64,000 nucleotides of DNA from Euryarchaeota archaeon UBA202 (lineage in GTDB: Archaea > Thermoplasmatota > E2 > UBA202), in the NCBI GenBank assembly GCA_002502685.1, contig DAQA01000029.1, forward strand, positions 4,957 through 68,956, in the 5' to 3' direction. The position numbers and the translations under genes are program-made. Each line of letters begins with the position of its first letter. Within the stretch, counting starts at the first letter, position 1. Of this stretch, positions 4,441-61,432 are shown piece after piece. The notes under the pieces are model-generated. The model was not told the DNA's origin and did no database searches. It saw only the letters and a program-made list of their open reading frames with translations.

Positions 4441-4839
4441 TCATTTGAGGACAGTATAATCTAAGAGTGTAAGTATCCATTCAAAGATTTTTTCGATAAT
4501 CCAGTGAAGATTTCCAAGTGGTGTCTTAGGGACATCAACAATGAGAGGACCAGACCAATCACTTTCCATCCCGTTTTCATCCTTTGCCTTCACCCTGACA
4601 TCATATATCCCCTTTGTTTCCCATTCATGAGATGCATTTATGGAAACACCTGATGGATAAGGACCCATCCATGAACTTAGTGATTGATCTCCCCAATCCC
4701 ATCTATAATATACCTGGTCCCCATCTATGTCCTCGGTACTGGTGGTATAGGCATACAAAGTTCCTGCTTCAACCTTGGTTTCACGATAATGGGGTATTGG
4801 GAGGATTACTGGCACGAAGCGCCACCACGGGATCACCAA
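4441..4839 (-). pseudogene. PKD-domain C-terminal segment, frameshifted relative to the upstream C25 peptidase ORF. Together they form a disrupted C25-PKD gene, or the shift is a sequencing error.
   Basis: The domain DGDQVYYRWDWGDQS...GPYPSGV...YDVRVKAKDENGMESDWSGP is homologous to the C-termini of 7170..8480 and 8689..9951. The two ORFs overlap at 4781-4839 in different frames. Confidence 0.5.
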
Positions 4840-6616
4840 ACAGATTTAATTGATAGTAACACCATCTCATCATGGATCCATCAATAAGATAAAGATTGTC
4901 TTCTTTTGAGTCTTGGTTTGCTTTACTAATAATGGGTATATTCTCTGAGAAGACAGCATCCCAGAATTCTCTCATATAATGATGGTTGTCTCCATCGGTA
5001 CTATTGGACCAATAAAAACCATAGCGTGCATTCATGATAACTGCAAAAGCACCATATTCTGATTTGACCGTTAAGGCCTCTGCCATACAGTCCTCCGCAT
5101 CAAATCCTCCCGCATTGCAACCCTGAGAATAAACAAAGCAATATTTCTCATTTGTGAAAGAGTCAATATCCTCGGGAACCATTTTTAAAGCATGCTGGTA
5201 ATTGCTATGTCCTAAATGGTTTATGATATGAACACCATTATTGATATGATTTATGAGTTCTGTGTTCGGCCAGTTACCATCCGGCCAATCTCGGTCATAA
5301 AGTTTTGTGACATTAAATTTTTCTGAGGGTATCCCCCCAGTTTTATATCCCGAGTGATTACTTTGATCAATGAGTTCATCCATATACTCTGCCCCATATG
5401 TTACAGAATCAAGTTCTTCTGCTGCCATTAATATGCTTTTTAGGTAATCGTTGGCCTGGATGCTCATATATCCAATTGTTTTAGTGACAAAATTGCTTGC
5501 TTCTTCCCCATTACCTACACAGGCTCTTCCCACGTATACTTCTGCCATAAGATCCACATCGGTCCCATTTTCTCCATCATGGGGTTCTCCCAATCTATCA
5601 TCGCCATCATAATTGTAGGGGTCATCAAGACAGGCATAAAAAAGGTCAGAAGGCATCATAGTCTCGTAATATTCTGTTGTTTTATCTTCGTCGTATCCTG
5701 AAACCCATAACTGGGGTGCAGGAACAATGTCATCATCGCCTCCAAGGAGGACATAGTCAATGCCATATTGGAGATATGCATCCTTAATATAATTGCGGAT
5801 ATCCATGGGGCTTTCCGGATTTCCGATTTCACTTACTGATTTGATTAATGTCTTTATCCCATTAGCCTCATGATGGATTTTTAGTGGCCGAAAACGCCAG
5901 GTAAAATTTTCTTCTGTTAGAATAAAAAGATCATAGTTTTTTGATAGTGAATAGCTGTCTTTCAGCTTTCGGTAGGTAATTGCTACATTAGGATTATCAA
6001 CTTTTTTTATGACTTCACATTCATCTTTGTATACTCCCCGAAATAATGAATTCGAACTGGTGGTTTCCATGGTCTTTATTGAAACCGTGAGATCTTTGTA
6101 GTAATATATCTCTCCCGTGGCAGGGATATAGTGAACCGGGTGAAGTTGTAAAATGAGTATTCCATAACCCCTGAAAAAATATGTTGTCACTTCAGTAAAA
6201 AGGGTTCCTGGAAATGGTTTCTCTAAAAGCGTGCCTTTCAATTGAGGTGTAACAACACTCTTCTCACCTGCAATGGTGCAAGGACTACCTGCAGAAATGA
6301 TGTTAAATCCTTCTCCTAATACTTTCTTCTCTCCGGCTGTGACCATAATATCGCCCACCTTTGTATTTGGCGGGAGCAGTACGGCCGCTCCTTTTATTGG
6401 TAGACAGGGTTCACCAGGTCTCCCATAATTTATTGTTCCATCCATAATTATCTTATCATAGATTACATCATTTACCACAATTGTTTCCAATCGCGGTGTC
6501 GTAAAAGAGTAAACAAGTGGTTTGAGCACCTTGCCATCGGTTCTTTCGCTTAATCCCACCACTAGTGTGCCACTGAGAAATAAGAAAAAACAGATGATTA
6601 CTTTAATTTTACCCAT
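4781..6616 (-). CDS. Secreted clan-CD cysteine peptidase, C25 gingipain-like catalytic domain. The C-terminal PKD domain continues in another frame (see 4441..4839).
   Basis: Signal peptide MGKIKVIICFFLFLSGTLVVG. His/Cys dyad context INHLGHSNYQHAL ... VYSQGCNAGGFD. Shares YVLLGGDDDIVP and DLMAEVYVGRA with the C25-like protein at 31024..32931. Confidence 0.6.
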   Translation of the reverse strand: MGKIKVIICFFLFLSGTLVVGLSERTDGKVLKPLVYSFTTPRLETIVVNDVIYDKIIMDGTINYGRPGEPCLPIKGAAVLLPPNTKVGDIMVTAGEKKVLGEGFNIISAGSPCTIAGEKSVVTPQLKGTLLEKPFPGTLFTEVTTYFFRGYGILILQLHPVHYIPATGEIYYYKDLTVSIKTMETTSSNSLFRGVYKDECEVIKKVDNPNVAITYRKLKDSYSLSKNYDLFILTEENFTWRFRPLKIHHEANGIKTLIKSVSEIGNPESPMDIRNYIKDAYLQYGIDYVLLGGDDDIVPAPQLWVSGYDEDKTTEYYETMMPSDLFYACLDDPYNYDGDDRLGEPHDGENGTDVDLMAEVYVGRACVGNGEEASNFVTKTIGYMSIQANDYLKSILMAAEELDSVTYGAEYMDELIDQSNHSGYKTGGIPSEKFNVTKLYDRDWPDGNWPNTELINHINNGVHIINHLGHSNYQHALKMVPEDIDSFTNEKYCFVYSQGCNAGGFDAEDCMAEALTVKSEYGAFAVIMNARYGFYWSNSTDGDNHHYMREFWDAVFSENIPIISKANQDSKEDNLYLIDGSMMRWCYYQLNLFGDPVVALRASNPPNTPLS

Positions 6617-7169
6617 ATTTTTGTTACCCTGCTCACTGAAGGGAAGAAATGGTTAAAAAACCTTTCTTTTCCAGACATTTTAAAAATTTTTATTAAAAAA
6701 TATAATGTATTATCCAAGTACCATCATTTACTGCTACTTATCCCTCTTTTAGTACCATTTCATCTATAAACTTTGATTTAGTTTTCTCGAAATTATTATA
6801 AATTTTTTTTTTGTACTTATTATGGGAGAAATAAGATCCCTCCCGGGGGACGACCGGGGGACTAATATCTATCAATAACGACTCGTTCCCATTAACTATT
6901 TTTTTCCCCGGCATTTCCCTCAAAAAATATTTCACTATCTATTTTTCTTTACCAGCATATGCCTAAAAAAAATAATATATCTATAAAATTGAAAACCACC
7001 ATCCCATAAATATCCATATCTCATACCCTACTGTCTTATCTTGCAATCAACAAGGCCAATATATTATAGACACATACTAAAATTATCTAGCTGTTCTAAT
7101 GAAATATATATAAAAAATATCGATTATCAATAATTATAAAAAAAAATTTATAAATATAGGCATCCTCAC

Positions 7170-8480
7170 ATGTTTGTGAAAATATCTATGTCCCATAAAA
7201 AAATAAAAATGTTATGTACCCTAAGCATAATTGCAGCAATATCTTTACTACCCTTGCATGCCACTGGCAATTATCTCCACAAAAATCCAAGCACCAATAA
7301 TGAAAATCACACATCAGAAAGACAAGCAATAGAGCTATTCAAAAAAGCACTTCCTTCCGCCACCTCCTATCAAGGCCACCTTCGTGTCTATATAGTAGAA
7401 CCCACATCGCGATGGAACGATTATTCTAACAAACCCTACCATTTTGGCCTTCTAGATTTCGCATTTAATGACAAGCTCTCAATACCCTACGGCGAAACGT
7501 ACAATACCACGCTAACCTGGGATCCAAACGCAGAAGGATACAGTGGAATAACTGAAGATAACCTCATGGTCATAGCCGTACTTTTTAATCCTGAAGTAAA
7601 ACAAGCCTATGCACAACCCCCCATGGGCAATAAATTCACTGCCCATTATGTCGATGCATGCGCTGGTTCAGTCCCAGGAGGCCAGGGCCATAATGTCGTA
7701 ACTGATGTTTTTACTCATACAGTTTTTGTTGAAGAGGCAACCGCCACCTGGTGTCCCTATTGCCCTGCTATGTCTGAAGCACTTTACACAATCTATAAGT
7801 CAAGAAGCTATCCCTTTTATTTTGTATCCCTAGTGGGAGATAAAAATACAGAGGCAAATGAAAGATTGCAAAATGATTACAATCTCTATGGATACCCCAC
7901 GTCATTTTTTGATGGAGGAGTGAAGGTTTTAGTAGGGGGATATGATGATGAAAAATATTATCGATCAAGGATTGAATCTAGTGGGCAGAAGGATGTTCAT
8001 GATTTGAATTTCAGTCTTTCTGTTGAGTGGCAACAGAATAGTAGTATTTCTATTGATTTGCAAATCACCAATAATGAAGAAACCGAAAATAGCCCCCCCG
8101 GGACGCCCACGATAACTGGGATTACAGAAGGAAAGATTGGCACTGAATATGAATATACCTTTGTTTCTACAGATCCTGATGGCGATGATATTTACTATTG
8201 GGTACAATGGGGTGAAGGCTGCCCCAGTCTAGAGTGGATTGGTCCCTATAGCTCAGGAGAAGAAGTGACAATGAATTATACCTGGGCTAATAAGGGGGAT
8301 TATAACATAAGTGTTAAAGCAAAAGATACTAATGATGCTGAAAGTGAATGGGGAACACTAGAGATACACATGCCTAAATCAATGGCAAAGTCTTTCTTTA
8401 ATGTTATCTGGCTTCTTCTTGATAAATTTAGGGAAAGTTTTCCATTTCTTCACTATTTTTTTACCCATCTAGGCATCTAG
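7170..8480 (+). CDS. Secreted thioredoxin-fold protein (CPYC active site) with a C-terminal PKD domain.
   Basis: Signal peptide MLCTLSIIAAISLLPLHA. ATATWCPYCPAM and a cis-Pro loop GYPTSFFDGG. C-terminal PKD: DPDGDDIYYWVQWGEG...GPYSSGE...NISVKAKDTNDAESEWG, followed by the tail FFNVIWLLLDKF. Confidence 0.6.
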   Translation: MFVKISMSHKKIKMLCTLSIIAAISLLPLHATGNYLHKNPSTNNENHTSERQAIELFKKALPSATSYQGHLRVYIVEPTSRWNDYSNKPYHFGLLDFAFNDKLSIPYGETYNTTLTWDPNAEGYSGITEDNLMVIAVLFNPEVKQAYAQPPMGNKFTAHYVDACAGSVPGGQGHNVVTDVFTHTVFVEEATATWCPYCPAMSEALYTIYKSRSYPFYFVSLVGDKNTEANERLQNDYNLYGYPTSFFDGGVKVLVGGYDDEKYYRSRIESSGQKDVHDLNFSLSVEWQQNSSISIDLQITNNEETENSPPGTPTITGITEGKIGTEYEYTFVSTDPDGDDIYYWVQWGEGCPSLEWIGPYSSGEEVTMNYTWANKGDYNISVKAKDTNDAESEWGTLEIHMPKSMAKSFFNVIWLLLDKFRESFPFLHYFFTHLGI

Positions 8481-8688
8481 CTCCCCATTTCCCTATTTTT
8501 TTTTATTTTTCTTTTAATATATCCGAATTATTTTTGTTAAAATACATTTTTTTTTGGATAGATTCATGATTATGCTTACTCTTTTCCATGATTTCATTGT
8601 CCTTACAATAAACAAAAAATTACCAAAAGTTGCAGACAGAAATGTTTATATAGAAATAAAGCAACTATAATATTAAGAAAATGGTGGA

Positions 8689-9951
8689 GTGCAAATGATC
8701 AAAATAAATAGGATAATCCTATTCTGTGCCATCGGCATATTGTTTTGTCAGTTTGCATTATCACCATTATTACAAAGTGCCCCCTATTTTAGAAACACTA
8801 GTGTCCAGACATTAAGCAATCCTGCTATAGTGTGTGATTCAGATCAATATGTATTATCTTCTTCAGAAAAAAATTCACTCAAAGAAGATTCTATTCCGTC
8901 TAGTTGGGATTGGCGAGACGCTGAACACGAGGGCATAAGGGGAGACTGGACAACCCCGGCGAAAAATCAAAGAAATAGATGTTATGCCTTTACCATCCTT
9001 GGCTCCCTTGAAAGCATTATTAAGATTCGAGAAAAGTGTGTTGATTTCACTCCTGATCTATCAGAACAATATCTTATTTCCCATTACACCTATGACGATT
9101 TTTTAAAAAATAGAAGTGGTGTCACTGTTTTTGAGGAATGTTGCCCCTATAAAGGATTATGTGGAATAAATCTCAAATATCATTTATTCAATATCACTGG
9201 ATTATCGCCTGACTGGGAAAAGTATTGCATACCTGTATCAAACTTTTCAGTAACAGTTCGCACTTCACCTCCTCTAAACCCTGAAGAAAGAAGAAATGAA
9301 CTTAAAAGCCTTATACTAGAAAATGGTCCTATTGGATTACGTATTTATGCACCAGGCATGAGTGTATTTACTGTAGGGTCTTTAAGAAATTGGGGTCTAT
9401 TCCACAGGGGCCCTAACGATTATTATTCTGGGGAAGCGCCTGCAGGGGTTTTTAATCAAGCAGTTGTTCTTGCGGGATGGAAGGATGATCTGATGATTCC
9501 AAATGGTGGATATTGGATTATCAAGAACTCTTGGGGTTCTCTTTGGGGATGTGACGGTTTTTTTAACCTTGAATACGGTAGTCTGAACTCTGGTTGTGGC
9601 TATTATATCCGGGTTGACTACGACCCTAGTTGTTTTAATTGGCCTCCCATGGGTAGCCCCGTTCTTGTTGCACCTTCTCATGTGAATTCTGAGAAGGAGT
9701 ATCGTTGCTCATTTAGTTCAATTGATCCAGAGGAGAATCAGTTTAATTATCAAGGGGAGGTGTACTATAATTTTTCTTTTGGAGATTATACGTTTAGTGG
9801 ATGGCTGGGTCCCTATAAATCTGGTGAACAATGCTCAGTTTTTCATGTTTGGAGTCAAAGTGGATCAGTTGATATCAAGGTTAAGGCTAGAGATGATCCA
9901 GATGGCGATGGAGATTTTTCAGATGGGGCTGAGACTTATTGGATGTCCTAA
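8689..9951 (+). CDS. Secreted papain-family (C1A) cysteine peptidase with a C-terminal PKD-like domain.
   Basis: Signal peptide. Cys-motif NQRNRCYAFTILGSLES matches QGxCGSCWAF, and YWIIKNSWGSLWGCDGFFNLEYG is the Asn/Trp region. The C-terminal PKD-like repeat ends at the stop codon. Confidence 0.7.
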   Translation: MQMIKINRIILFCAIGILFCQFALSPLLQSAPYFRNTSVQTLSNPAIVCDSDQYVLSSSEKNSLKEDSIPSSWDWRDAEHEGIRGDWTTPAKNQRNRCYAFTILGSLESIIKIREKCVDFTPDLSEQYLISHYTYDDFLKNRSGVTVFEECCPYKGLCGINLKYHLFNITGLSPDWEKYCIPVSNFSVTVRTSPPLNPEERRNELKSLILENGPIGLRIYAPGMSVFTVGSLRNWGLFHRGPNDYYSGEAPAGVFNQAVVLAGWKDDLMIPNGGYWIIKNSWGSLWGCDGFFNLEYGSLNSGCGYYIRVDYDPSCFNWPPMGSPVLVAPSHVNSEKEYRCSFSSIDPEENQFNYQGEVYYNFSFGDYTFSGWLGPYKSGEQCSVFHVWSQSGSVDIKVKARDDPDGDGDFSDGAETYWMS

Positions 9952-10147
9952 TCCCTGCAAGTTTTTTTCTAATTTTTACCGGTTTTTTTTTCCTCTTTTA
10001 CTTTCCTATATATCATGATGGCATAAATCACACTTCCACTATTCTATTCCTCCAAGATGGTACTGAACCCTAGGGACTTCTTGCCATTGCCCCCAGTTTT
10101 TCCTTGCTGCAATAACCTTTATTTCTCCCTATACCATACAGGCATCA

Positions 10148-11803
10148 ATGAGAAAAGAATGCATTGCTGTTCTTGTACTATTAATCATAATGGGGAATTT
10201 TTTTCATTCTTTCTTTATAAATTCTACTGCCTTGGATGCAAAAAATGTAAAAGGGAATCCTTATGATAATAACTTGTTTAATCAAACTGATATACCTACT
10301 TGGACAATTGGTGATACCTGGACCTATGAATCATCAGTTTTTTTTGAAGGGGAAAACGGCTCCTTTGATGGTTATATCGAAGATCTGGTGCAAACTGTTG
10401 TAAAACTAGTGAACCTTATGCAAAATGAAACCATCCCTTTTTTTGTGGTAAATCTAAGTGGTAATATTAGTGGTGAGTTGGCATATGGAATTATAACAGG
10501 TGATGTGGAAGGGTCAATACAGGGTGAACTTATTGTTAGGTTATCTGATCTTGCAATAATAAGGACAGAAATCAAATCCTGGGGTGAGATTGATACTTTT
10601 TTATTGACCTTTGACTATGGATTAAACAGTACATTACTGTTTCAACCTCCTCTGGAAAATTATGATTTTCCCCTTAAATTAGAAGACAACTGGGAAGTTT
10701 TTTCCCATGTTACATCGAAGGGGAGTTTCTATATCGAGGGCCTTATCAATGAATCACTCTCCGGTGATTCCTTAATGGGTGGATTTATGGAATTTATCAA
10801 TATACAAAATATAAGTGTTCCTGCGGGAATCTTTGAAAGCTGTCAATTAACAGCTCTTAACAATGAATCTTTTGATTATTGGTATTCCCCATTAGTAAAA
10901 AATTCTGTTAAGTCTGTGATAAATATGTCCAGTGATAATTCCACAGTAAACCTAGAGATGAATCTTTCCTCTTATTCCTTAATAAATCAACAAATAAACA
11001 TTACCCAACAGTTCACGCCACCAAGTGTGTACGCAAATGAATATGCAAACATTACAGGAGAGGTTAGAAACACGACTACCGGTGATGCCATTCCTAATGC
11101 ATCCGTTTTCTTACGCCTGCCATGTAACAATCAGGTGTGGAATGTCACCACAAATAATCTTGGTTATTATCACACAATGATTATGGCACCACTCATACAT
11201 GATAACACACCGTCAAATGATGATATCGGATCAGATGGTATCATTGCTTGGACTTCAGGGATTTATGGTGATGGCTGTAGAATAACAACATTGACCATAA
11301 AGGGGATAAACTACACATTTTCTCTCACTGAGGAGTGGAATTTAATTTCGATTCCAACAGAAAATATATGGACTGCGGAAACCCTGGGACAAAATATTAG
11401 TGGCTGTACCGTGGTGTCCATATTTTATGGAAACAACCAGACGTTTATATCCCATGTGGTGGGATCACCCCACGATGATTTTCCCATTGTAGATGGCGTG
11501 GGGTATTTCATGTATGTAACCAATGACAGCAACCTTTCCATGAGGAATTTACCCCTCAATAATATCAATATAACAATTCACCCTGAGTGGAACCTTATTG
11601 GCTGGTATCATGACTATGTTACCACGGCGGAGTCCCTGGGGGCTGCCATTGCTAATTGTACCGTGGTTTCCATGTTTGATGGGGTCAGTAAGAATTTTAC
11701 CACGCATGTGGTGGGGACACCCCATGATGATTTCACTATTGAAACCGGTATGGGTCTTTTTATCTATGCCACTGAAACAAGTATTTGGCAGGGTGAAGGG
11801 TAA
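10148..11803 (+). CDS. Secreted or surface glycoprotein-like protein carrying an internal tandem duplication of a roughly 70-aa C-terminal domain.
   Basis: Signal peptide MRKECIAVLVLLIIMG. Dense NxS/T sequons. Tandem units EWNLISIPTEN...CTVVSIFYGNNQTFISHVVGSPHDDFPIVDGVGYFMYV and EWNLIGWYHDY...CTVVSMFDGVSKNFTTHVVGTPHDDFTIETGMGLFIYA. Confidence 0.5.
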   Translation: MRKECIAVLVLLIIMGNFFHSFFINSTALDAKNVKGNPYDNNLFNQTDIPTWTIGDTWTYESSVFFEGENGSFDGYIEDLVQTVVKLVNLMQNETIPFFVVNLSGNISGELAYGIITGDVEGSIQGELIVRLSDLAIIRTEIKSWGEIDTFLLTFDYGLNSTLLFQPPLENYDFPLKLEDNWEVFSHVTSKGSFYIEGLINESLSGDSLMGGFMEFINIQNISVPAGIFESCQLTALNNESFDYWYSPLVKNSVKSVINMSSDNSTVNLEMNLSSYSLINQQINITQQFTPPSVYANEYANITGEVRNTTTGDAIPNASVFLRLPCNNQVWNVTTNNLGYYHTMIMAPLIHDNTPSNDDIGSDGIIAWTSGIYGDGCRITTLTIKGINYTFSLTEEWNLISIPTENIWTAETLGQNISGCTVVSIFYGNNQTFISHVVGSPHDDFPIVDGVGYFMYVTNDSNLSMRNLPLNNINITIHPEWNLIGWYHDYVTTAESLGAAIANCTVVSMFDGVSKNFTTHVVGTPHDDFTIETGMGLFIYATETSIWQGEG

Positions 11804-20251: not shown

Positions 20252-23200
20252 CTAAGAGGATGATGTTATATCTACAGGTGGCGTCTCAGCAGTGATAGAG
20301 GGATTATACATATCATATGCCTTTACTCCCTGGATGGTTCCCTTAATGGGCTCGTTTGCTTCAAGCTGGTAATCAAAATGTACCCATTCCCCCCGTGCAA
20401 GACTTTCAATATATACCACTGCCTGTCTTCCCCTTATCTCAAAATTATCAATCGTATCATTGCCCAATAATGCACTAAAATCTGTAGAAACAAAGGAGAA
20501 ACCCACTGGAGCCCGAAGATCAATAAGAACCATGCGGGCACTCTCCGCGCTTCCATTATACATTAAGTCCACATGGGCCCAGAGCATATCAGATACTTTA
20601 ATTGATGTGGAATCATAGCTTACATTGATAATTAGTTCACGTGGTTTTTCTAGTGACACCAAATCCCAGGGGAGATATTGTTCAGAAAAGATTTGATAAA
20701 GGATGCTCCCATTTCCCTGTGCAGTAATCTCTATGGTGGCAACATCAGAAAGATAGGGACGTAAATCAATCAGGTATGTAACATCCTTGTTTTCGTCTGT
20801 CAGATCCAAAATGGCCACCGGTATATTATTGGCATAAATGTTGACCCGCATATCCTCGATTTCACCTGTTCCCTGTCCATTGAGAGCCTGTAAAGCAACA
20901 ACTGTATCCTGGGTGGATGAAAACCCTCCCATTTGATTTCTATGGTTCAAAAGATAACTGACAGCCCCTTTGATTATTCCTTCAGATCCGCCATGCTTTT
21001 GAAGCGCCATAATAGCATACGCAGTTGTTTCAATGGTATAGGTGCTCATTCCCCAAAATCGCGCTGTTTCAGTGTTTGAATACATATTATTTTCTGTTTC
21101 CCAATACATCGTTCCGTTGTCTTCATTTCGTAGCAAGAGTAGTTGACTGCAAATCCTGTCCTGCACACTCCTCTCCCCATTGGCGTCCTCTAGAACAATA
21201 AGTGCCAGGGCAAGGGTATAGGGATCATTCCAATGCTCATCGATATTTTCTTTAATGTACCCTAACGATTTTTTAATATGACTATCACTTTCATATCCAC
21301 TGTAGAGAAGTGATCGGGTGATATATGCCGTGGTCGCCACCTTTTTCATTTTAAGAATCGGATTAGTTGTTTCATATAATCCCCATTCAGGAAACCTATA
21401 GGATCCATCACTCATCTGTTGGTTGATGAGCCAGTTTTGCATGTCAGGGATAATTTTGTCATCAATGGTGAATCCTGTATTCTTGGCATCCTGAAATGTG
21501 AGAAGGCCCCATGAGGTTAACCAGGGATGTGGACTCTCCTCATGGGGGAACCAGACAATACCCCGTCCATCCTTATCCCGGACAAGATACATAAATTCAT
21601 GTTGTATCCCCTGGGTGACCATGGTTTCACTTTCAAAGAGTTGATCGGTTGTGATCCCGTCTTTTTTTAAGAGATTTTGATAGGCAAGGATATCAATGGC
21701 AAGCAAGGACATGGATTGTTCTCCGCATCCTGAAACAAAATTAAGAAATCCCTCGGCGCCATCTAGTATCACAGATTCCATTCCCCCCTGGATTTTGATG
21801 AAGGCGTTTTCACTGTTGGATATGCGTTCAGATGACAGGGGTATGATATGGGTCACTGTTTGGTTGTCTCTTAATTCACCATTTTCAATTTGTGTAATTG
21901 CTTTTCCATCCGGGTCTATCCTTATTTGTTTCACTATGGCATCGCTGTCTTCATTGGAGAGGGCGGTTATGGTAATATTATGGCTGCCGACACTGATGGG
22001 TCGAATAGTAAAAGCGACACCAGTGACACTATTTGGATGTATGGTAAGTGACTGCTTGCGTCTAGAGAGAAGATCATACCATTCGTCTTGTTCAATCTCC
22101 ACTGTCACTGTACTTGTTGTGTTGCCATAATTGTACACCAGGATATTTAGGGGGAACTCGTCATTCCTGATTGCTGCCACGGGGATATCGGGCTCAACAA
22201 AAAATTGTTTAAAGACCCGTATTTCCTGGTTTCCTACACCGATTTGTGCATCCATTGTGGAGGCAATGGCTTCAATATTCCAGGTGGTAATTGAATCCGG
22301 GGTGATTAGGGTGATATTTGCATTGCCCTGTTCATCTGTTATAATGAGGGGTTTCCAGTACCATGTCTCGGGAAAGAAATGTCTTACACGTTCTGGGGAA
22401 GTATCTTGTGCGCCATTACCCAATAAAATCGAATCCTTTACGAGGGCATCTTCCTCCCACCGACCCGTTATATTTACAAAAATATTTCCTCCTGGCCCAT
22501 CATTTCTATCTACTAGTCCAATATCACCTCCCATCCCGTCTTCCGTATCACTTGGTAAGGCTTGGTTCATTACCATGAACATACCGACACCACAAATACA
22601 AAGACCCAGGGTTGCCAGGGTGGCAAACATTTTTGTGTTCCCAAACACTTTACCGGCAAAATAAGTGGTTATTACAACCGCACAGACAATAAAGGCAATA
22701 AGCAGGGTCATCCAATAGACAAATATACTTTTTTCCTTGAATAATTGGGCATCCGCAAGGTATTTATCCGGGTTGCTAAGGACCATGTTTTCGTCTGTTT
22801 TAAAACTACTTTGGTCCACAAGATAGGGTGTTTCTCCTAAGGAGAGGATCCTTGTGGTATTAGTAAAGACATATTCATGAATCTCATATGCGGGAGTGAT
22901 AAATTCTTCCTCCAACTCAAAGTAAAGTTTTTCTAGACCCATAAAACGCTGGCTGACTTCAAAAACAGACTTGTCCACAATACTAATACCCATGGCGGCA
23001 ACCACGGGGTGTGATCCATCATCTACCTTGAACTGCAAGGTTATATTTTCGTGTGGTTCATACTCCTCCTGGGCAGTGTACACCTGCACATTTAAGGTAT
23101 CTGGTGATATTACCCCTATAACCGCGGTATCCCGTGCCACATTCAAATCTGGTTGTATCTTATAGGCTCGTATCTGGGTGAGAGGTATCATGTCAGGTGT

Positions 23201-24670
23201 CGCAATAATACTAAAATTTCCCTTCCCTTCACTGAGGGCGAGTCTGCCCGTGGTTGTCACAAAGCCGTTTGCTATCACGTCATAATAGACCCAATCGGTT
23301 GTACTGTTCCCTGTATAATATACTTCGCATTGGATATCATCACCCGCCAGATAATTTTCTTTATTGGGAATGACTTTAATACCTCGTGATCCAGTGAGGT
23401 CATGTTTGGAGACAATTCTTACATCATTTTTTATTACTTCAACCATAAGGGTGGTTTGATTGGTAAACAAAAAACTAAAATTGGCAATACCCCGTTCATT
23501 GGTCATTTTGCTTGTCATGTTTTTTCCATCAAGGAATACAGTCACCTGTGCATTATCCACAGCTACCCCGCAGGGATCCCGTACAATCACATAATACTTA
23601 GACAGGGTGTCTATGATATTGTTATCCCCAAGTGTGGTGATTACTAGTGAGTTATTTGCAAGGGGAATGATATGGGTCTCATTTTCCATATGTCCCCCGG
23701 TGTCCTCTACAGTGATTTGTAACTGAATTATCCCATTCTGGTTCCATACTGGAAGAGTCACAGCATAATTAACGGGTGGTAAAGTAAACTTAAATTCCCC
23801 ATTTGTTAGTTTTCCTTTCACCCCCGCCACATTTCCCCATTTCCCCAGATAGGTAGAAGCATTAATTTGGACAGTACCCTCCACCGCTTTACCAAAAAAG
23901 TATCTACAGGAAACAGCACCGGTGATGGATTCATTAATAAGATACCACGGTTTCATATCTTCAACCTCGATACTAAACTTGGGAAGAACATATTTTTCAA
24001 CCATAACCACCGTCTGGGTTTCCTCGCCACCTACCCGTGCCGTTATTTTATAATTACCCATGGGTAATTGATCAGAAAGAAAAAAATCATACTCTGTGAT
24101 CCCATACTCATTATCAGGTTGCAAAAATTCCTTTGCCATAAGGTTTCCCTCAGGATCCGCTATCGATAACTCTACTATGTCATCTGAGGCAACGGGATCA
24201 ATATTTTCATAGGTAAGCATCCTGATATGGATTGTTTGACCGGGCTGATAGAGGGGCTTATCCGTAGAAAGAAGAATCCGATGGATATCTACAATAGAGA
24301 TATCCTTCCTGATCTTTTCATCTCCAACCGTGACCACAAGTTTTCCCTCTCCCGTAATATTGGGAACAGTAAAGAGAGGTTTCACATATCCACCGTCATC
24401 CATCTTTCCCTCATAAAGATTAAATGTTTCATCCCCAAGGATAACATCAACAGTAACCTTTTCATCTGATGGAACACCCTTGATATCATGGGCAAGGACA
24501 AGGAGGGATGACTGAGAATTACTAAACAATTTCGAAGGCATATTCACCGTCACTAGATTTTTACTTGAAAGATAGAGGTCATCAGCAGTATAAGCCATGG
24601 CCCCGGAAGCTACAATGATACATCCAATGGCAATAATAAGCCATGTCTTTTTCCCAAGCATATTTTTCAT
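20252..24670 (-). CDS. Alpha-2-macroglobulin-family thioester-containing protein. The ORF extends to 24757; the likely start is MKNML at 24670.
   Basis: Canonical thioester motif FVSGCGEQSMSLL and TED-domain NWLINQQMSDGSY (QQxDGS). Signal/TM IIAIGCIIVASGAMA. About 1,470 aa with long MG-like beta regions. Two hydrophobic helices in mid-protein (LLIAFIVCAVVITTYFAG / LATLGLCICGVGMFMVM). Confidence 0.75.
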   Translation of the reverse strand: MKNMLGKKTWLIIAIGCIIVASGAMAYTADDLYLSSKNLVTVNMPSKLFSNSQSSLLVLAHDIKGVPSDEKVTVDVILGDETFNLYEGKMDDGGYVKPLFTVPNITGEGKLVVTVGDEKIRKDISIVDIHRILLSTDKPLYQPGQTIHIRMLTYENIDPVASDDIVELSIADPEGNLMAKEFLQPDNEYGITEYDFFLSDQLPMGNYKITARVGGEETQTVVMVEKYVLPKFSIEVEDMKPWYLINESITGAVSCRYFFGKAVEGTVQINASTYLGKWGNVAGVKGKLTNGEFKFTLPPVNYAVTLPVWNQNGIIQLQITVEDTGGHMENETHIIPLANNSLVITTLGDNNIIDTLSKYYVIVRDPCGVAVDNAQVTVFLDGKNMTSKMTNERGIANFSFLFTNQTTLMVEVIKNDVRIVSKHDLTGSRGIKVIPNKENYLAGDDIQCEVYYTGNSTTDWVYYDVIANGFVTTTGRLALSEGKGNFSIIATPDMIPLTQIRAYKIQPDLNVARDTAVIGVISPDTLNVQVYTAQEEYEPHENITLQFKVDDGSHPVVAAMGISIVDKSVFEVSQRFMGLEKLYFELEEEFITPAYEIHEYVFTNTTRILSLGETPYLVDQSSFKTDENMVLSNPDKYLADAQLFKEKSIFVYWMTLLIAFIVCAVVITTYFAGKVFGNTKMFATLATLGLCICGVGMFMVMNQALPSDTEDGMGGDIGLVDRNDGPGGNIFVNITGRWEEDALVKDSILLGNGAQDTSPERVRHFFPETWYWKPLIITDEQGNANITLITPDSITTWNIEAIASTMDAQIGVGNQEIRVFKQFFVEPDIPVAAIRNDEFPLNILVYNYGNTTSTVTVEIEQDEWYDLLSRRKQSLTIHPNSVTGVAFTIRPISVGSHNITITALSNEDSDAIVKQIRIDPDGKAITQIENGELRDNQTVTHIIPLSSERISNSENAFIKIQGGMESVILDGAEGFLNFVSGCGEQSMSLLAIDILAYQNLLKKDGITTDQLFESETMVTQGIQHEFMYLVRDKDGRGIVWFPHEESPHPWLTSWGLLTFQDAKNTGFTIDDKIIPDMQNWLINQQMSDGSYRFPEWGLYETTNPILKMKKVATTAYITRSLLYSGYESDSHIKKSLGYIKENIDEHWNDPYTLALALIVLEDANGERSVQDRICSQLLLLRNEDNGTMYWETENNMYSNTETARFWGMSTYTIETTAYAIMALQKHGGSEGIIKGAVSYLLNHRNQMGGFSSTQDTVVALQALNGQGTGEIEDMRVNIYANNIPVAILDLTDENKDVTYLIDLRPYLSDVATIEITAQGNGSILYQIFSEQYLPWDLVSLEKPRELIINVSYDSTSIKVSDMLWAHVDLMYNGSAESARMVLIDLRAPVGFSFVSTDFSALLGNDTIDNFEIRGRQAVVYIESLARGEWVHFDYQLEANEPIKGTIQGVKAYDMYNPSITAETPPVDITSSS

Positions 24671-24926
24671 ACAAACATTATCTGATTTTAAATAATAAAT
24701 ACTCTTATAACGTTTGGTGACCACCAAACCTCCTTTGCGCAAACAACTTGTCACCAACTATTCCGGCAGCATCCCATTTTTTTTTTCTATCATACGCGCG
24801 CTATTCTCCCCTAGCAATGGTGCTGTTTATCCTTCTCCACCGTTGTAGAAAAATGGTTCATCTAGATTGTACAAGGGTACCAAAAACCACACAAAGATCA
24901 TTATGCCAAATATTAATAACCCGTGA

Positions 24927-28656: not shown

Positions 28657-30264
28657 TCAAGTAAATAATGCCATTAAGTGAGGTATTATGATAAGTGAAA
28701 GAATTAAGGCTAATACCGCTAGTGAGATGAGAAAGGTTATTTTTCCTGCTATTTTTTCTTCTTGTTCCTTTTTAATATTTTTCTTTATCTTTTTTAATAA
28801 TATTGCGATCCCATCCTTTAAAAGATAACCCCCATCAAGGGGTATAGCGGGAAGGGCATTAAATGTTCCCAAGGCAAAATTTAACCAGAAAATCCAATAG
28901 ATGCTGTCACCCAGTCCCCAAAACAGTGATTTGGGTAATATGGACAGGGGTCCTGTTATTTTATACAGATTGCTCATCTCATCTGGAAAGGGTGACAGTC
29001 CCTGAAAGGGGAGAGTTATATAGGTGAAAAATCCGGATAGAGACGATGCAGGATGTACTAAAGCATCTATTAATGCTTCAGGGGAGGAAACCATGATGCC
29101 CAAAGGGAGAATATTGATTCCCAAAAAGCCCACATTAGTGTATTCTTCCTTGTTTTTGCCAGGGTAATATTTCTCATAATACTCGTATTTGTCACCCAGT
29201 GTTACTGTTTTGTTATAAAAAGTATAATTCTTTGTTTCCTGGTGATAACTAACCCCTTCGATATATATGGTTTTTCCCGCCCTAGTTGTATTCATGATGG
29301 TATTAAACTCTTCTTCATTTGTTACAAGTGTTCCATTGATCGTTTCTATAATGTCTCCCACTCTTATCCCCGCTTTATCAGCGGGGTATCCTTCTGCAAC
29401 AACAGCGATTACCAATCCACCCATAATGGTTTGTGTCTGAAAATTATTATCATGATAAAAAGTGAAGGTATAGTTTTTTGTGGGTTGCAGGCTAGCGGCT
29501 ACTTTGTCAAAATCATCAACATCTTTTATGGATTGTTCATCAATAGAGGTGATTAATGTCCAGGGTTCAATATCCAAAACATCGGCGGGACTGTTTTCAA
29601 TGATGCCCACCGCAAGGGTTCCATTATGGTGTGGTGACACGCTTGCCATGAAACCTAAGGAAAACACAAGGGCGCAGATAAACGCTAGAACCAAATTGGA
29701 TGACGGCCCCATTGCAAAAATACGCATCCGTTTCTTTTTGTGAATTTTCTCCATCTGTTTTTCATCGGGTTCCACAAATGCCCCAAGGGGTATAATCATA
29801 TACATGATCCCCAGGGCTTTAATCTTTATGTTTCCCACCATGGCCAGAATTCCATGTGAAAATTCATGAATAATGATGGCAATGATGATTCCCACAATTA
29901 AATAGGGAATAGATGAAAGGGGTATGAGGGGGTTAACACCAGGGAGAAGAAGCAACATTTGTGGTGTTGGTGCCTGCTCAGCTGGAATGCTAAACGAGAG
30001 GGTCATTTCCCATATAAGAAGTGCCATCATGGCAAACATGGCCATAAAGCAGAGGAAGACACCGAAATTTGCAAAATGTGTCCAAAAGAGTTTTGGCTGT
30101 GACAAAAATTTAATAATCTTTTTCCCCCGGGGTGTCCTCCACATCAGGACAGGACCCCACAAAGAAAGGTTGTATTTTTTTAACATCCCCCGGGTTTTTA
30201 CAATATAAAGTAAGAGAAACCAAAAAGATAGGATTATCAATAGCAGGGGCAGCAACCCAGGCAT
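28657..30264 (-). CDS. Site-2 protease (M50 family) intramembrane zinc metalloprotease with PDZ domain(s).
   Basis: HExxH in TM helix IIAIIIHEFSHGILA. Second motif ALPAIPLDGGYLLKDG (LDGG). Multiple TM helices. The central soluble region has PDZ-like G-hydrophobic-G loops. Confidence 0.75.
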   Translation of the reverse strand: MPGLLPLLLIILSFWFLLLYIVKTRGMLKKYNLSLWGPVLMWRTPRGKKIIKFLSQPKLFWTHFANFGVFLCFMAMFAMMALLIWEMTLSFSIPAEQAPTPQMLLLLPGVNPLIPLSSIPYLIVGIIIAIIIHEFSHGILAMVGNIKIKALGIMYMIIPLGAFVEPDEKQMEKIHKKKRMRIFAMGPSSNLVLAFICALVFSLGFMASVSPHHNGTLAVGIIENSPADVLDIEPWTLITSIDEQSIKDVDDFDKVAASLQPTKNYTFTFYHDNNFQTQTIMGGLVIAVVAEGYPADKAGIRVGDIIETINGTLVTNEEEFNTIMNTTRAGKTIYIEGVSYHQETKNYTFYNKTVTLGDKYEYYEKYYPGKNKEEYTNVGFLGINILPLGIMVSSPEALIDALVHPASSLSGFFTYITLPFQGLSPFPDEMSNLYKITGPLSILPKSLFWGLGDSIYWIFWLNFALGTFNALPAIPLDGGYLLKDGIAILLKKIKKNIKKEQEEKIAGKITFLISLAVLALILSLIIIPHLMALFT

Positions 30265-30460: not shown

Positions 30461-30976
30461 GTGAACCAAAAATGGATCAATGTCATGGTTGTTGCCATAA
30501 TCGTGGTAACACTCGCCTTTGGCTTCACCTGGATTATCCGAGAGGAACACAAATCCATCCAGGATCTACAATTGAGCCTTAGGGGCATCAAACTCATTGG
30601 TTTTAAATTCACCCCAGGAAGACTTTTACCCTCGGGTATGACCCTGGAAATGGCATTAGATGCCCATAATCCCAATGACCTAGATGTAGCCATCTATGAT
30701 CTTGAATATGGTGTATTTATCAACGATATATTTGTGGGGAACGGATCATTAAGTGAGAAAGAAAAGATTACTATCCCCCAAAATCAAACACGAGAAATCA
30801 CCATATCATATACTGCTAACCTAACCGTTCTTCCTGCGGTTGCCATCACAACCATACAAAATATTATCGATAAAGAAGAGAGTTATTGGGAAATCATTGG
30901 CATCGTCTATGTAGATACACCCCTAGGCAAGGACACATATCCCTTTTCATGGACCTATTCACCCCTAGATTCGTGA
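30461..30976 (+). CDS. Membrane-anchored LEA_2/NDR1-like (water-stress/Hin1-like) domain protein.
   Basis: N-terminal TM (VMVVAIIVVTLAFGFTWII) followed by a roughly 140-aa beta-rich domain. Weak family recognition. Confidence 0.3.
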   Translation: MNQKWINVMVVAIIVVTLAFGFTWIIREEHKSIQDLQLSLRGIKLIGFKFTPGRLLPSGMTLEMALDAHNPNDLDVAIYDLEYGVFINDIFVGNGSLSEKEKITIPQNQTREITISYTANLTVLPAVAITTIQNIIDKEESYWEIIGIVYVDTPLGKDTYPFSWTYSPLDS

Positions 30977-31023
30977 TAGATTTTTATAGCAACATAATAT
31001 TCTTTATTATGGTGATAAATGAT

Positions 31024-32931
31024 ATGAAAACCAAAATCCTTGTCATCCCGGTTTTAATAATTCTTCTGACAAGCACAATCACCCTTGCCCATAGAGACAT
31101 AAATGACACACAGGAACTCTCCCTAACACACCATTTTTCACCGCCCTTAATTACAGATGATGGAAACTCGGTAAGTATCTCCATACCTGAAGCCTCCTCA
31201 TGTGATTATACCCCGGGTGAGCCTCTTCTCCCTGTTCATACAGAAATACTACCTTTCCCCATAGGGACCCATATAACAAAAATCATGAGCGCCCCCAGCA
31301 CCATTCATACCGTATCTCTTCCAAAACAAATACAAAAAACCCCTGATCCTTTCTCCCTCACCACACATTATCCTTCCTCAAATCCAGGCACTACAGCACC
31401 AGTCACAGCTCCCTCTCCTGTTCAATGGTATAGCTTCCATTTGGGGATTGGAAGGCATGAAAACAATCCCACTCTTTTTCTATCCCTTACCGTGTACCCC
31501 TGTCAATATAACGCTTTAACCAACGAATTATACTATATACAGGACATAACCTTCTCTATCCAGTACACCACCCCCCAGGCCCTCCTGTCCCTTCCAGATG
31601 GCTATAATCTGCTTATCATTTCTCCTGTCCAGTTTCACACTGACCTTCAAAATTTAGTTTCCCATAAAGAAAGCCATGGCCTTAAAACCAAACTGGTGAC
31701 CACTGAAGAAATCTATACCGGTGACTATTTCCCGGTCATGGGTAGGGATGATGCAGAAAAAATCAAATATTTCATAAAAAACGCTCTTGAGGAATGGGGC
31801 ATTGATTACGTGCTCTTGGTTGGAGGGTTAACCTCACAAATAATGGGTGACACCTGGCACGCCCCCGTGAGATATTCACATCTTGTTACCACGGGTGGAT
31901 ATGGTGAAAAAAGCTACCTGACAGATCTTTATTTTGCAGATATATACAAAAGTGACGACCAGGGCAACCCGGTCTTTGATGACTGGGATTCAAATGGAAA
32001 TAATATATTTGCGGAATGGCCCCGGTTTGGCAGTAGGGATGAACTAGATTTGTACCCCGATGTCTATGTCGGCCGTCTTGCCTGTCGGAATACACAGGAG
32101 GTACAAACAGTCATAGACAAAATCAAAACCTATGAAAACACACAGGATCCATCATGGTTCAAGCGATTGGTGCTCGCCGGGGGAGACACCTTTAATGATC
32201 AAACGGGACATAACTATTATGAAGGAGAAATCTCCAATCAACGGGTCTTGGAGATCCTTTCCAGCTTTGAGGCACAACGTATCTGGTATACCCTAGATAA
32301 TTTTAAACAAAAAAATATTGTGGATGCCATTAGCAAGGGATGTGGATTCGTCCATCTTTCCGGTCACGGAAGCCCAGGTATGTGGATGGCTAAGGACTTC
32401 ACCGATGACCCCCAGGGGGAATACCTCTTGGGTCTGGATGTCTATCACATGCCTCAATTATCCAACAAGGACCAATACCCCATCGTGGTAATTGGAGGCT
32501 GCCATAACAGCTTGTTTAATGTCACCTTCCTGGGAAGCCTCATAGGTTGCATCAAATCACTCACTGGGTCCCCCACATGGTATTGGATGCCCATCCCTGA
32601 ATGTTTTGGGTGGTGGCTGGTCAAGCAGCCCCAGGGCGGTGCCATTGCAACTCTTGGTTGCACGGGTCTTGGTTTAGGAACAATTGGTGATTCCAACCAG
32701 GATGATATCCCTGATGCTCTCCAGTTTTTGCTAACATGGCTTGAACTTCGTTTTTTTGAGGCATATGCACAGGACAACATTACCATGTTAGGGCACACAT
32801 GGGGAACTGCCATAACTGACTATATCCATACCTTTGATTGTTATCGGGATAAAGGAGACCAAAAAACAGTGGAAGAATGGATTCTCCTCGGTGATCCCTC
32901 CCTTATGATAGGAGGATATCCCATCTGCTAG
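31024..32931 (+). CDS. Secreted clan-CD cysteine peptidase, C25 gingipain-like. The ORF extends to 30886; the likely start is MKTKIL at 31024.
   Basis: Signal peptide MKTKILVIPVLIILLTSTITLA. His GFVHLSGHGSPGMW and Cys IVVIGGCHNSLFN. YVLLVGG and PDVYVGRLACRN are shared with 4781..6616. Confidence 0.65.
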   Translation: MKTKILVIPVLIILLTSTITLAHRDINDTQELSLTHHFSPPLITDDGNSVSISIPEASSCDYTPGEPLLPVHTEILPFPIGTHITKIMSAPSTIHTVSLPKQIQKTPDPFSLTTHYPSSNPGTTAPVTAPSPVQWYSFHLGIGRHENNPTLFLSLTVYPCQYNALTNELYYIQDITFSIQYTTPQALLSLPDGYNLLIISPVQFHTDLQNLVSHKESHGLKTKLVTTEEIYTGDYFPVMGRDDAEKIKYFIKNALEEWGIDYVLLVGGLTSQIMGDTWHAPVRYSHLVTTGGYGEKSYLTDLYFADIYKSDDQGNPVFDDWDSNGNNIFAEWPRFGSRDELDLYPDVYVGRLACRNTQEVQTVIDKIKTYENTQDPSWFKRLVLAGGDTFNDQTGHNYYEGEISNQRVLEILSSFEAQRIWYTLDNFKQKNIVDAISKGCGFVHLSGHGSPGMWMAKDFTDDPQGEYLLGLDVYHMPQLSNKDQYPIVVIGGCHNSLFNVTFLGSLIGCIKSLTGSPTWYWMPIPECFGWWLVKQPQGGAIATLGCTGLGLGTIGDSNQDDIPDALQFLLTWLELRFFEAYAQDNITMLGHTWGTAITDYIHTFDCYRDKGDQKTVEEWILLGDPSLMIGGYPIC

Positions 32932-57571: not shown

Positions 57572-58663
57572 ATGAAGAAACAAACTCATCTTGACCAATG
57601 GGGTGTTTGTGGCACCCCAAAGGTCTGGAGGTCTGATAGAATGAGTATCAAACCCCTAAAAGATATAGAAAAAAAAGTAAATAAAGGTTCATATCCTCAA
57701 GATTGGGTAGCATACAATCTAGCACAAACACAAGAAAAACTCCTATTTATTGAATTATTACATGAGCTAACATCACAGATACCGCAACCAAAATATAAAG
57801 GAAACGGGAGACCTCCAGCAAACTTTGGAGAAATGGTTTTCACGTGTTGTCTCAAGACTTATCTTGATTTTAGTAGTAGGAGAAGTGAATCAGACATCAA
57901 ATTAGTAAAACAGCTTGGTTATATCACCCATGCTTCACATTTCAATACCATCCTTAAATATCTTAACCAACCAATTATGAAAAAAGTTTTAGCAAAGCTC
58001 ATTGCTTTATCATCTTTACCCCTTAAAGAAATTGAAAAGGATTTCACCATGGATGCCTCAGGTTTTAGCACGGCAATGGTGTGTAACTGGAATAAATCAC
58101 AAAAAATCCACTCGGAGAAAAGACTTTTTAAGAAGGCTCATGTGATGAGCGGTGTTAAAACCAATATCATAACTCACGTTGAGATTACAGATGGATATGT
58201 CCATGATAGTCTGATGCTAGAAAAACTCGTAGTTTCGACAAATAAACATTTTAGGATGGAGGAAGTGAGTGCTGATAAAGGTTATTCATCAGAAAAAAAC
58301 CTCCAGATAATTGCGAAAACTGGGGCTGTACCCTATGTTTTATTTAAAATTAATGCTAAAAAAACGAAGGACAGACTTCCTATCTGGCGTACCATGCTTC
58401 TATTTTTTAGGGAGAATAAAGAAGAGTTTATGGAACATTATCATAAGAGAAACAATGCAGAATCTGTGTTCTCGATGATGAAACGGAAGTTTGGTGGATT
58501 TGTTCGAGCACGGAAATCACTTGCACAGGAAAACGAGGTCTTATGTAAAGTGCTCTGCCACAACATTTGTGTCCTTATCCAAGAAATGTTCGAGTTGGGA
58601 ATAAAAATTGATTTTGAAGAAATCGTCAGGGATGAGTTTATGTGCAAATTCAGACTAGATTAA
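57572..58663 (+). mobile_element. DDE transposase of the IS4/IS5 superfamily (DDE_Tnp_1). The true start may be the internal MSIKPL.
   Basis: DDE residues in MDASGF, ADKGYSS and the Y-x2-R-x3-E-x6-K motif YHKRNNAESVFSMMKRK. Repeated 13-mer at the 3' end. Confidence 0.8.
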
Positions 58664-60187: not shown

Positions 60188-61432
60188 TTATCCTGTCCAG
60201 TGCTGACCAACCAGGATCATATCCAGGATATTAACCACCCCGTCACAGTTCACATCAGCCGATATCCAACAAGGTGGCCCTGCCTCACCCCAATCCTGAC
60301 CAATAAGGATAAGGTCAAGAATATTCACCGAATCATCATTATTAACATCCCAAGGTTCATTCGGGAGAACAGTAACACTTGCATTTTCAATAATAACAGG
60401 CACGGGTGAACCATTAGGCTGACCCACCACCACATTTGAGAGATTAAACCAAGAGGTACCATTGGCATCAAGGGGGGCAGTGAAATTAACATAGACTGCT
60501 TCCCCAGAATGGATCACATTATCACCAGGAGTGGTAATAACAACATAAACATCAGTAATTGTTCCATTAATATTATCCACTATTCCTGGATTAAAGTAGG
60601 TACTGGAGCCATAAAAAAGACTGCCTTCATGGACTGACCCTGCCTGGAAAAGGGTGAGGTCAAAAGTGAGGTCAAACTGCACACCTGCGATAGGCTCCGC
60701 TGGGTCAACCTCAATGAATAGGGTGAATCCATTACCTGCATAAATCTCGTTATATGTTAAGAGAGGATTGATTTTAACGATAGTGTCCGTGGGTACAATC
60801 AGTGGTGCAATGATAGTTATATTGTCAATATACCAACCGTATTCATGCCCAGTACCATCTGCAGTGTGAAGAAATGCAAATCTTATCCATTTTCCTTCAA
60901 AAGGTAATAGATTCACATGGATAGGTGTCCATATTACTGATTTCCAGGTAAAATGCTCTGTGATATTCTCCCACGGCTCCTAGGATTCCTGGCTTTCATT
61001 ATAAATCGAAACTTCTACTTGTCCATAATCTGGGGAGTAAAAATAGTCAAAATAGTGCCAGAATCGAAGTTCTAATATGTCCCCCTCGGTCACATAGGGT
61101 AATTGTACAGGAGGGCTAATCAAGCGACTGTCAGTATAATCTGGATATTTTTCCCCGAGGATTGTTCCAGCACAGTTTTCACCCGATGGACAGCCACCGG
61201 GACCCGCAGTTGGTGCTCCAATCTGCCAAATGCCATTGGTTGTATACCATTCCCCCCATCCAGATTCAAAATCTTCTTCAAATATTACTATATGAGATGC
61301 CTGTATCGGATTTGGTATTATCATTAGAGATAAAATTAATACTGTAACTATTCCACTTGATAATACCAATATCTTTGTTCTATTACCATCAATTATATCC
61401 ATTTTTTTCCTCCCTGCTATATTCCTTATCAA
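60188..61432 (-). pseudogene. Membrane-anchored MAM/lectin-like plus dockerin-repeat protein interrupted by one in-frame TAG. Track ORFs 60980..61432 and 60188..60916 are in the same frame.
   Basis: Reading through the TAG at about 60977-60979 gives continuous ...VEVSIYNESQES*EPWENITEHFTWKSVIWTPIHVNLLPFEGKWIRFAFLHTADGTGHEYGWYIDNI... C-terminal dockerin-like pair DVNNDDSVNILDLILIGQ / DVNCDGVVNILDMILVGQ. Confidence 0.5.

Follow-up and report, generated by a model that had tools for sequence, protein, structure and literature searches.

The locus described here raises the question of whether unrelated secreted proteins of an archaeon can share a C-terminal signal that directs them to, or keeps them at, the cell surface. 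It lies in a stretch of 64,000 nucleotides of contig DAQA01000029.1 of Euryarchaeota archaeon UBA202 (Thermoplasmatota), which as a whole is called here the window, and comprises, between positions 4441 and 11803, four open reading frames (ORFs) with signal-peptide-like N-termini. According to the initial annotation, which was made from the DNA sequence alone, a C25 peptidase, a CPYC thioredoxin-like protein and a papain-type C1 peptidase encoded there would all end in the same PKD-like domain, followed in two of them by a similar tail, and the domain together with the tail could represent a surface-targeting module. The four ORFs were found at the coordinates given in that annotation and the three enzyme identities were borne out by Pfam, which names three of the four: a C25 peptidase, a protein that matches thioredoxin weakly and contains a PKD domain, and a member of Peptidase_C1. 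Our analysis of relatives of these proteins leads us to consider it somewhat probable that the sediment Thermoplasmatota (MBG-D/Thermoprofundales and their relatives) possess a new sorting or surface-docking system, in which a C-terminal label, HP-x-x-FP-(I/L)-LRxLL, would mark dozens of peptidases, redox enzymes and adhesin-like proteins per genome and be read by a receptor or a processing enzyme. The window illustrates this system poorly, with one intact, divergent tail, one tail severed by a frameshift and one absent.

The conserved tail in relatives of the window proteins

Nearly all of the 120 best homologues of the thioredoxin-like protein extend for 25-35 residues beyond '...LEVSMPK', and the tails of its orthologues grade from loose helix-Pro-helix patterns into a canonical motif, as in 'MPKNKPYINPLFSRFLEQHPNLFPILRQLLGL'. 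The consensus of this tail, which occupies about the last 30 residues of the protein, is PKNK-x-INTPFLxFLE(N/Q)HPxxFP(I/L)LRQLLGL. The canonical motif also ends a subset of the C25 homologues (e.g. '...MPKNKPYLNPSFFWFLEQHPHLFPILRHLLKLQ') and is thus present in two unrelated families, thioredoxin-like and C25. A profile of 42 positions, including the last PKD strands and the tail, was searched against 1.84 billion representative proteins and rendered 2,473 clusters at E<=1e-3, 556 of them at E<=1e-10. The match ends within 10 residues of the protein end in 147 of the 150 best matches, which are proteins of 49-916 aa. Therefore, the idea that a conserved C-terminal element is common to unrelated secreted proteins, which had been put forward from the window, is strongly confirmed in the relatives.

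The proteins bearing the tail are diverse. Among the 86 matches of at least 250 aa, Pfam detected NosD/beta-helix, PQQ and other propellers, LamG, FG-GAP, cadherin-like and Kelch domains, as well as peptidases of families C25, C1, C11, C13 and C14. The carriers were checked for signal peptides, as the initial annotation had suggested, and a signal-peptide-like N-terminus was found by a crude rule in 63 of the 78 complete matches (81%). When a profile of the tail only was used, the motif was also found directly behind C25 catalytic domains ('...MFGDPTLVIEDGDDPKNIPTSTPFLNFLENHPNLFPILR...'), NosD beta-helices and beta-propellers, behind BNR-like and arylsulfotransferase-like proteins, and behind a non-PKD beta domain ending '...IDVSLTTPKNK'; in these non-PKD carriers the absence of PKD was confirmed with Pfam. 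PKD is also found internally, before a different terminal domain. Because the tail directly follows non-PKD domains, the unit is the tail of about 30 residues and not PKD plus tail, as had been supposed. The tail is autonomous, PKD being merely the commonest stalk that precedes it.

The tail does not correspond to any annotated family. No Pfam or NCBIfam match covers it, whether it is scanned alone or in ten full-length carriers, and the tail peptides rendered nothing at E<=10 against Pfam, Dockerin_1 (PF00404) included. The search of the tail profile against PDB sequences produced only a His-tag artefact (E=9.7), and characteristic tail strings led to no relevant paper in open-access full text. 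The tail appears to be an unannotated element that is lineage-wide in Thermoplasmatota.

On the same cargo families (C25 and one thioredoxin-like protein) we have also observed an alternative, likewise unannotated C-terminal domain that ends '...TATAFLLGPFVLNIR' or '...GFVFGPFVMV' (P0139, P0143, P0152, P0191, P0211 and others; P0105; L072:7459-8385; L058:11641-12801). This domain may be a second interchangeable C-terminal module.

Distribution and copy number

A genome scan with 10 canonical tails, in which one genome per species was considered, rendered 78 loci, 76 of which belong to metagenome-assembled genomes (MAGs) or closed chromosomes of Thermoplasmatota. The two exceptions are contigs of 2-3 kb binned as Heimdallarchaeota (L006) and Altiarchaeota (L013), and their tails may result from mis-binning or from lateral spread. 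The tail is present in many copies per genome: one MAG has 18 loci or more and chromosome CP070724.1 no fewer than 9, and 11-19 carriers were counted per genome even in partial samples. In the 0.97 Mb of fetched loci there are 132 carrier ORFs, and in 128 of them the tail ends no more than 20 residues from the stop codon. Near tagged genes, 3 loci, including L037:13061-13765 on the minus strand, encode a small Cys-rich protein that has a signal or anchor at its N-terminus and is hydrophobic in its C-terminal region.

Conservation and predicted structure

Among paralogues within one genome the tail is 60-64% identical, while identity amounts to 27-36% in the preceding 80 residues and to about 21% further upstream. 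In the matches selected with the profile, the most conserved positions of the tail are P (99%), F-P (99%), L (97%), H-P (P, 95%), R (88%), E (80%) and the final L-L-G-L, and a conserved P-(K/R)-N-(K/R) is located just before the tail, at the domain-tail boundary. This conservation resides in the peptide. In a core of 16 residues the identity by codon position is 0.92 for the second, 0.68 for the first and 0.53 for the third, identical residues share the codon in only 54% of cases, and Leu and Arg at conserved sites are encoded by four to five synonymous codons. The pattern of the codon positions and the low frequency of shared codons indicate that selection acts on the protein and not on DNA or RNA.

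The maximum Kyte-Doolittle mean over 19 residues is 0.36 for a canonical tail, 0.83 for the tail of the thioredoxin-like protein of the window and 1.12 for that of its C25 peptidase. All these values fall below the usual threshold of about 1.6, so that the description of the tail as a non-transmembrane element holds, and with a maximum of 0.36 the canonical tail has no transmembrane helix. It contains instead two amphipathic stretches, with hydrophobic moments of 0.39-0.45. AlphaFold2 models both the intact tail of the window and a canonical one as helix-kink-helix, with the predicted kink at His-Pro and a predicted local distance difference test (pLDDT) of 55-77 beside domains above 90. From these models, the tail is read as a segment that is probably not packed onto the domains of its own protein.

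Possible function of the tail

Judging from these sequence features, we give about an even chance to the possibility that the tail is a recognition or retention tag, not previously described, that is read by a partner. Tagged cargo would be exported via Sec, and a common protein partner, either a surface receptor or a processing enzyme, would then read the tag and hold its bearers at the cell surface or position them there. In this way, loss of hydrolases, redox enzymes and adhesin-like proteins to the sediment would be avoided. The conserved K/R-N-K/R upstream of the tag may be a cleavage site. The C25, C11 and C13 families comprise Lys-, Arg- or Asn-specific peptidases, and self- or cross-processing at P-(K/R)-N-(K/R) by such cargo peptidases is conceivable. 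Recognition by a partner is favoured because polar and proline positions are near-invariant across unrelated cargo and genomes, and residues of this kind (E, H-P, F-P, R) speak for specific recognition over generic lipid binding. Several observations weigh against the recognition tag. Many orthologues, those of the window included, keep the helix-Pro-helix pattern only and not the motif, and this loss can be explained by a physico-chemical role, e.g. lipid binding, just as readily as by a receptor. Among the neighbouring genes no family was found at more than 4 of the 78 loci, and no partner was identified; the recurrent neighbours look like housekeeping genes or other cargo and were rejected as partner candidates. 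The conservation in the best 150 matches is partly by construction, as these were chosen by the profile, and the signal-peptide call is a simple heuristic.

Lipid binding is the core of one alternative, an in-plane membrane anchor in which the two amphipathic helices would lie in the outer face of the cytoplasmic membrane with no protein partner. We hold this to be possible though unlikely. Such an anchor would explain the tails that preserve only the hydrophobic amphipathic pattern in many lineages, including that of the window; the amphipathic character and C-terminal site of the tail agree with it, and a low pLDDT fits a segment that becomes ordered on a surface. Over thousands of proteins, however, a near-invariant E (80%), P (95-99%) and R (88%) together with a terminal G-L would be unusual for pure lipid binding. 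It could also be the case, with a somewhat lower probability, that the tail is a cleaved sorting signal, removed by a peptidase or transpeptidase that would attach the cargo covalently to a lipid or to a surface glycan. Known C-terminal tags that serve many proteins through one enzyme are processed by cleavage (PMC6098224; bioRxiv 10.1101/2023.06.07.544157), and the conserved K/R-N-K/R is placed exactly at the boundary between domain and tail. The enzyme could even belong to the C25 family, which is expanded, in analogy to PorU of the bacterial type IX secretion system, and the C25 peptidase of the window matches the PorU model weakly (66 bits, for a cut-off of 420). This similarity reflects the shared catalytic fold only, though, and the C25 peptidases are themselves cargo. 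Moreover, the tail contains neither a transmembrane segment nor a basic cluster by which a substrate could be retained at the membrane, and no candidate for a sorting or processing enzyme was found next to the cargo genes among the 78 loci.

The remaining two explanations dispense with targeting. The tail could be a structural cap, an oligomerisation helix or a latency peptide spread by domain shuffling, and shuffling is evident, since the same cargo families bear alternative C-terminal modules. That the tail would have no common targeting role is nevertheless improbable: it is the best-conserved part of otherwise unrelated paralogues, six or more different folds bear it, its position is almost always terminal, and in the AlphaFold2 models it is apparently unpacked on the domains. 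An element acting at the DNA or RNA level, such as a 3' recombination cassette or an mRNA signal, would account for many copies per genome at the 3' ends of genes. With 53% identity at third codon positions versus 92% at second ones, and with the synonymous codons used for Leu and Arg, this reading is so improbable that we have rejected it.

If the recognition tag is real, it would represent a new kind of signal for surface display in archaea, independent of a membrane helix, would allow the surface proteome of uncultured lineages to be recognised by a simple sequence marker, and would give a handle on the partner machinery via phylogenetic profiling. Whether the enzymes are released or held at the cell decides who gains from the hydrolysis, and also how enzyme activity in sediments should be read. 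Since the carriers are now named only by their cargo domain or as 'hypothetical', there is a case for new Pfam and NCBIfam models.

The genes of the window

The C-terminal regions linked to the C25, thioredoxin-like and C1 genes of the window are homologous PKD domains. The C25-linked domain matches that of the thioredoxin-like protein with E=5e-22, and the one in the C1 protein does so with E=6e-14 (BLASTP). With the Pfam models PF00801 and PF18911, the C25-linked ORF scores E=6.9e-10 and the thioredoxin-like protein E=1.9e-4, just under the curated cut-off. The homology of the PKD domains in the three enzymes was thus upheld, but in the assembled sequence the C25 enzyme lacks the module at its end, and the PKD of the C1 enzyme is truncated. 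The two tails of the window that had been considered similar, KIFEWILTLLDY and FFNVIWLLLDKF, lack statistical support for that similarity in shuffle tests.

The only gene of the window that is intact with a tail is that of the thioredoxin-like protein (7170-8480, plus strand), a secreted protein of 436 aa (P0001) consisting of a signal peptide, a beta-sandwich, a thioredoxin fold, PKD and the tail. It has 821 homologues, the named ones being chiefly from Thermoplasmatota. Its AlphaFold2 model has a mean pLDDT of 86, and Foldseek matches this model to thioredoxins and to PDB 4XED. The CPYC redox motif (Cys195 and Cys198) is encoded at 7752-7763 on the plus strand, and both cysteines are invariant in 100 homologues. 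The PKD domain (8088-8378, plus strand) ends '...LEIHMPK' and aligns end to end with PDB 4XED, on which it superposes with 58% identity and a root-mean-square deviation of 0.8 A. PDB 4XED is the PKD of an M14-like peptidase of MBG-D, from a Thermoplasmatales single cell. The construct that was crystallised has 'MPK' as its last residues, directly ahead of where the tail would start, and this end marks the domain-tail boundary. The tail that follows, SMAKSFFNVIWLLLDKFRESFPFLHYFFTHLGI (8379-8477, plus strand), is divergent, with predicted helices at residues 408-423 and 425-433 (pLDDT 60-77). With profiles from which its close relatives were excluded, it reaches 5.5-7.9 bits (p about 0.01), which suggests a marginal, divergent member of the tail family. 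The gene order in which the CPYC protein is followed by the C1 cysteine peptidase (7170-9951) is also found in relatives (L082, L083), and a role of the CPYC protein as an extracellular redox partner of cysteine peptidases is plausible.

The C25 (gingipain-family) cysteine peptidase is encoded on the minus strand by an ORF of 611 aa (4781-6616) that includes a signal peptide, a propeptide (Propeptide_C25, E=3e-7) and the catalytic domain (Peptidase_C25, E=9e-56). The ORF ends at a premature stop, TGA at 4783-4781. Alignment of the DNA with L086, the gene for P0123, revealed an 8-bp deletion at 4784-4785 (minus strand), where ACCAATGG of the orthologue is absent, and as a result the PKD and tail are no longer in the frame of the peptidase. 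The closest C25 orthologues (83-90% identity) are intact single proteins of 727 aa with C25, PKD and tail. An identical split into 611 aa and 124 aa was found in a JGI assembly and in a Logan assembly, both of which may share reads. A homopolymer sequencing error was considered and rejected, as the difference is an 8-bp deletion, and for this reason the gene looks truly truncated before its C-terminal module; if the deletion is real, the strain makes an untagged C25 enzyme. The severed PKD domain (4525-4782, minus strand) corresponds to residues 20-105 of ORF 4441-4839 and lies out of frame with the peptidase. It is followed by the tail TPLGNLHWIIEKIFEWILTLLDYTVLK (4444-4524, minus strand) and a stop at 4441-4443. 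This tail is of a subtype, 'EKI(N/F)EW', that was found in 11 of 120 C25 homologues, all in one C25 subfamily, and nowhere else in the data. It scores 4.2-4.3 bits against the tail profile of the thioredoxin-like family, a value reached by 6-8% of composition-preserving shuffles, so that no significant similarity to the thioredoxin-like or canonical tails was detected by shuffle tests. This single-helix subtype, '(I/L)(I/L)EK(I/L)NEW(L/F)..', is also present in P0128, P0129, P0135, P0141, P0149, P0151, P0178 and P0201.

The papain-family C1 peptidase (8689-9951, plus strand; 420 aa; Peptidase_C1, E=8e-15 with Pfam) has a signal peptide and a truncated PKD-like domain (about 9643-9948), and the tail is absent. 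The protein ends 'ETYWMS*', before the last PKD strand, and relatives that are 83% identical end 'ETYWMP*'. In the T-rich 3' region (9945-10017, plus strand) an alternative frame reads 'KFFSNFYRFFFPLLLSYIS', a string that is merely tail-like: it scores 3.6 bits against the tail profile and is equalled by 470 of 1000 shuffles. A tail acquired by frameshift was rejected for this gene, given that the string is at noise level and that the relatives stop at the same residue; the region is not part of the system. Neither is the fourth ORF with a signal peptide (10148-11803, plus strand; 551 aa), in which Pfam finds a weak CarboxypepD_reg match only, and both PKD and a match to the tail profile are absent. 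Its C-terminus consists of two tandem copies of a segment of about 65-70 residues, '..WNLI...TAE(T/S)LG...C TVVS(I/M)F.G....F..HVVG(S/T)PHDDF..', that matches no family.

Other secreted proteins are encoded in or near the window. A second C25 peptidase (30886-32931, plus strand) ends at the catalytic domain, '...LLGDPSLMIGGYPIC', with PKD and tail absent, and immediately outside the window, on its upstream side, two further untagged secreted proteins are encoded (L001:1-997 and L001:1443-3446). The gene of an M50 site-2 protease with PDZ domains, RseP-like (28657-30264, minus strand), is located some 600 bp upstream of the second C25 gene and in divergent orientation to it; exported proteins could in principle be substrates of this intramembrane protease. 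A protein of 1501 aa of the alpha-2-macroglobulin type (20252-24757, minus strand), with MG2, MG3, bait region, TED and receptor-binding domains, represents a protease inhibitor encoded amid secreted peptidase genes in an archaeon. A DDE transposase gene is found at 57572-58663 (plus strand). A PADLOC scan found nothing and was uninformative. The remainder of the window consists of ordinary archaeal housekeeping genes, e.g. those of the mevalonate pathway and of phosphate transport, and the named homologues are mostly from Thermoplasmatota, including the MBG-D single cell SCGC AB-539-C06.

Comparison with known systems

The archaea to which the window belongs are among the most abundant in marine sediments and, according to the passages of PMC6461988 that deal with their peptidases, are thought to use detrital protein via extracellular peptidases. 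Peptidases of families C25 and C1 and peptidases bearing PKD are described there as known and expressed, and the PKD domains of the window belong to this known group of MBG-D peptidase PKDs (PDB 4XED; Thermoprofundales, PMC6461988). The tail is not mentioned in these passages.

The tags recognised by sortases, exosortases and archaeosortases are tripartite, with a motif, a transmembrane helix and a charged or basic end (PMC6098224). Like the PGF-CTERM tag of archaeosortase A, LPXTG, PEP-CTERM, GlyGly-CTERM, MYXO-CTERM and CGP-CTERM, the tail of Thermoplasmatota is a short conserved C-terminal tag on unrelated exported proteins, occurs in many copies per genome and is restricted to one lineage. 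It differs from them in having a different motif and neither a transmembrane segment nor a basic end: the canonical tail ends ...LRQLLGL and those of the window ...THLGI and ...YTVLK, with no basic terminal cluster. No curated CTERM model of NCBIfam/TIGRFAM covers the tail in the tail peptides or in the ten full-length carriers scanned, and a search limited to regular expressions, which covered the window and about 1 Mb of loci, found no tripartite ends of the PGF, PEF or PIP type. An archaeosortase-type signal was therefore rejected, for lack of the transmembrane helix and the basic cluster. Of the likeness to archaeosortase and type IX secretion system (T9SS) tags proposed in the initial annotation, what stands is the terminal pattern common to many proteins; there is neither a tripartite signal nor a match to the C-terminal domain (CTD) of T9SS.

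Anchoring by a terminal amphipathic helix is represented by PBP5 and PBP6 of E. coli. As in the tail, there is no transmembrane segment and the cargo is an exported enzyme, but these anchors are single, poorly conserved helices in one family, whereas the tail comprises two helices, is conserved as a motif and is attached to hundreds of families.

The T9SS CTD is a beta-sandwich of about 80 residues that functions in diderm Bacteroidota. As with the CTD of gingipains, which is processed by PorU, a C-terminal element outside the membrane is attached here to peptidases and adhesins, C25 peptidases are prominent among them, and an Ig-like domain usually precedes the protein end. The archaeal tail is in contrast a predicted helical peptide of about 30 residues that is also found without the Ig-like PKD, and the T9SS CTD models (Por_Secre_tail) rendered no match in the C25 peptidase of the window or in the carriers. 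Dockerins are calcium-binding modules of about 60-70 residues with a duplicated loop-helix. They resemble the tail as small, uncleaved C-terminal modules on diverse secreted enzymes, which they bring to a common scaffold through cohesins, although the tail does not match the Dockerin_1 model of Pfam, which is 57 positions long. The window also encodes a small protein (60188-60916, minus strand) in which a genuine cohesin domain is combined with a type I dockerin, and the organism therefore also has classical cohesin-dockerin parts. By analogy with the dockerin-cohesin pair, docking to a common scaffold would be the favoured mechanism for the tail. In its logic, the tail resembles most the T9SS CTD and the dockerins, that is, a C-terminal element outside the membrane that is shared by many secreted enzymes.

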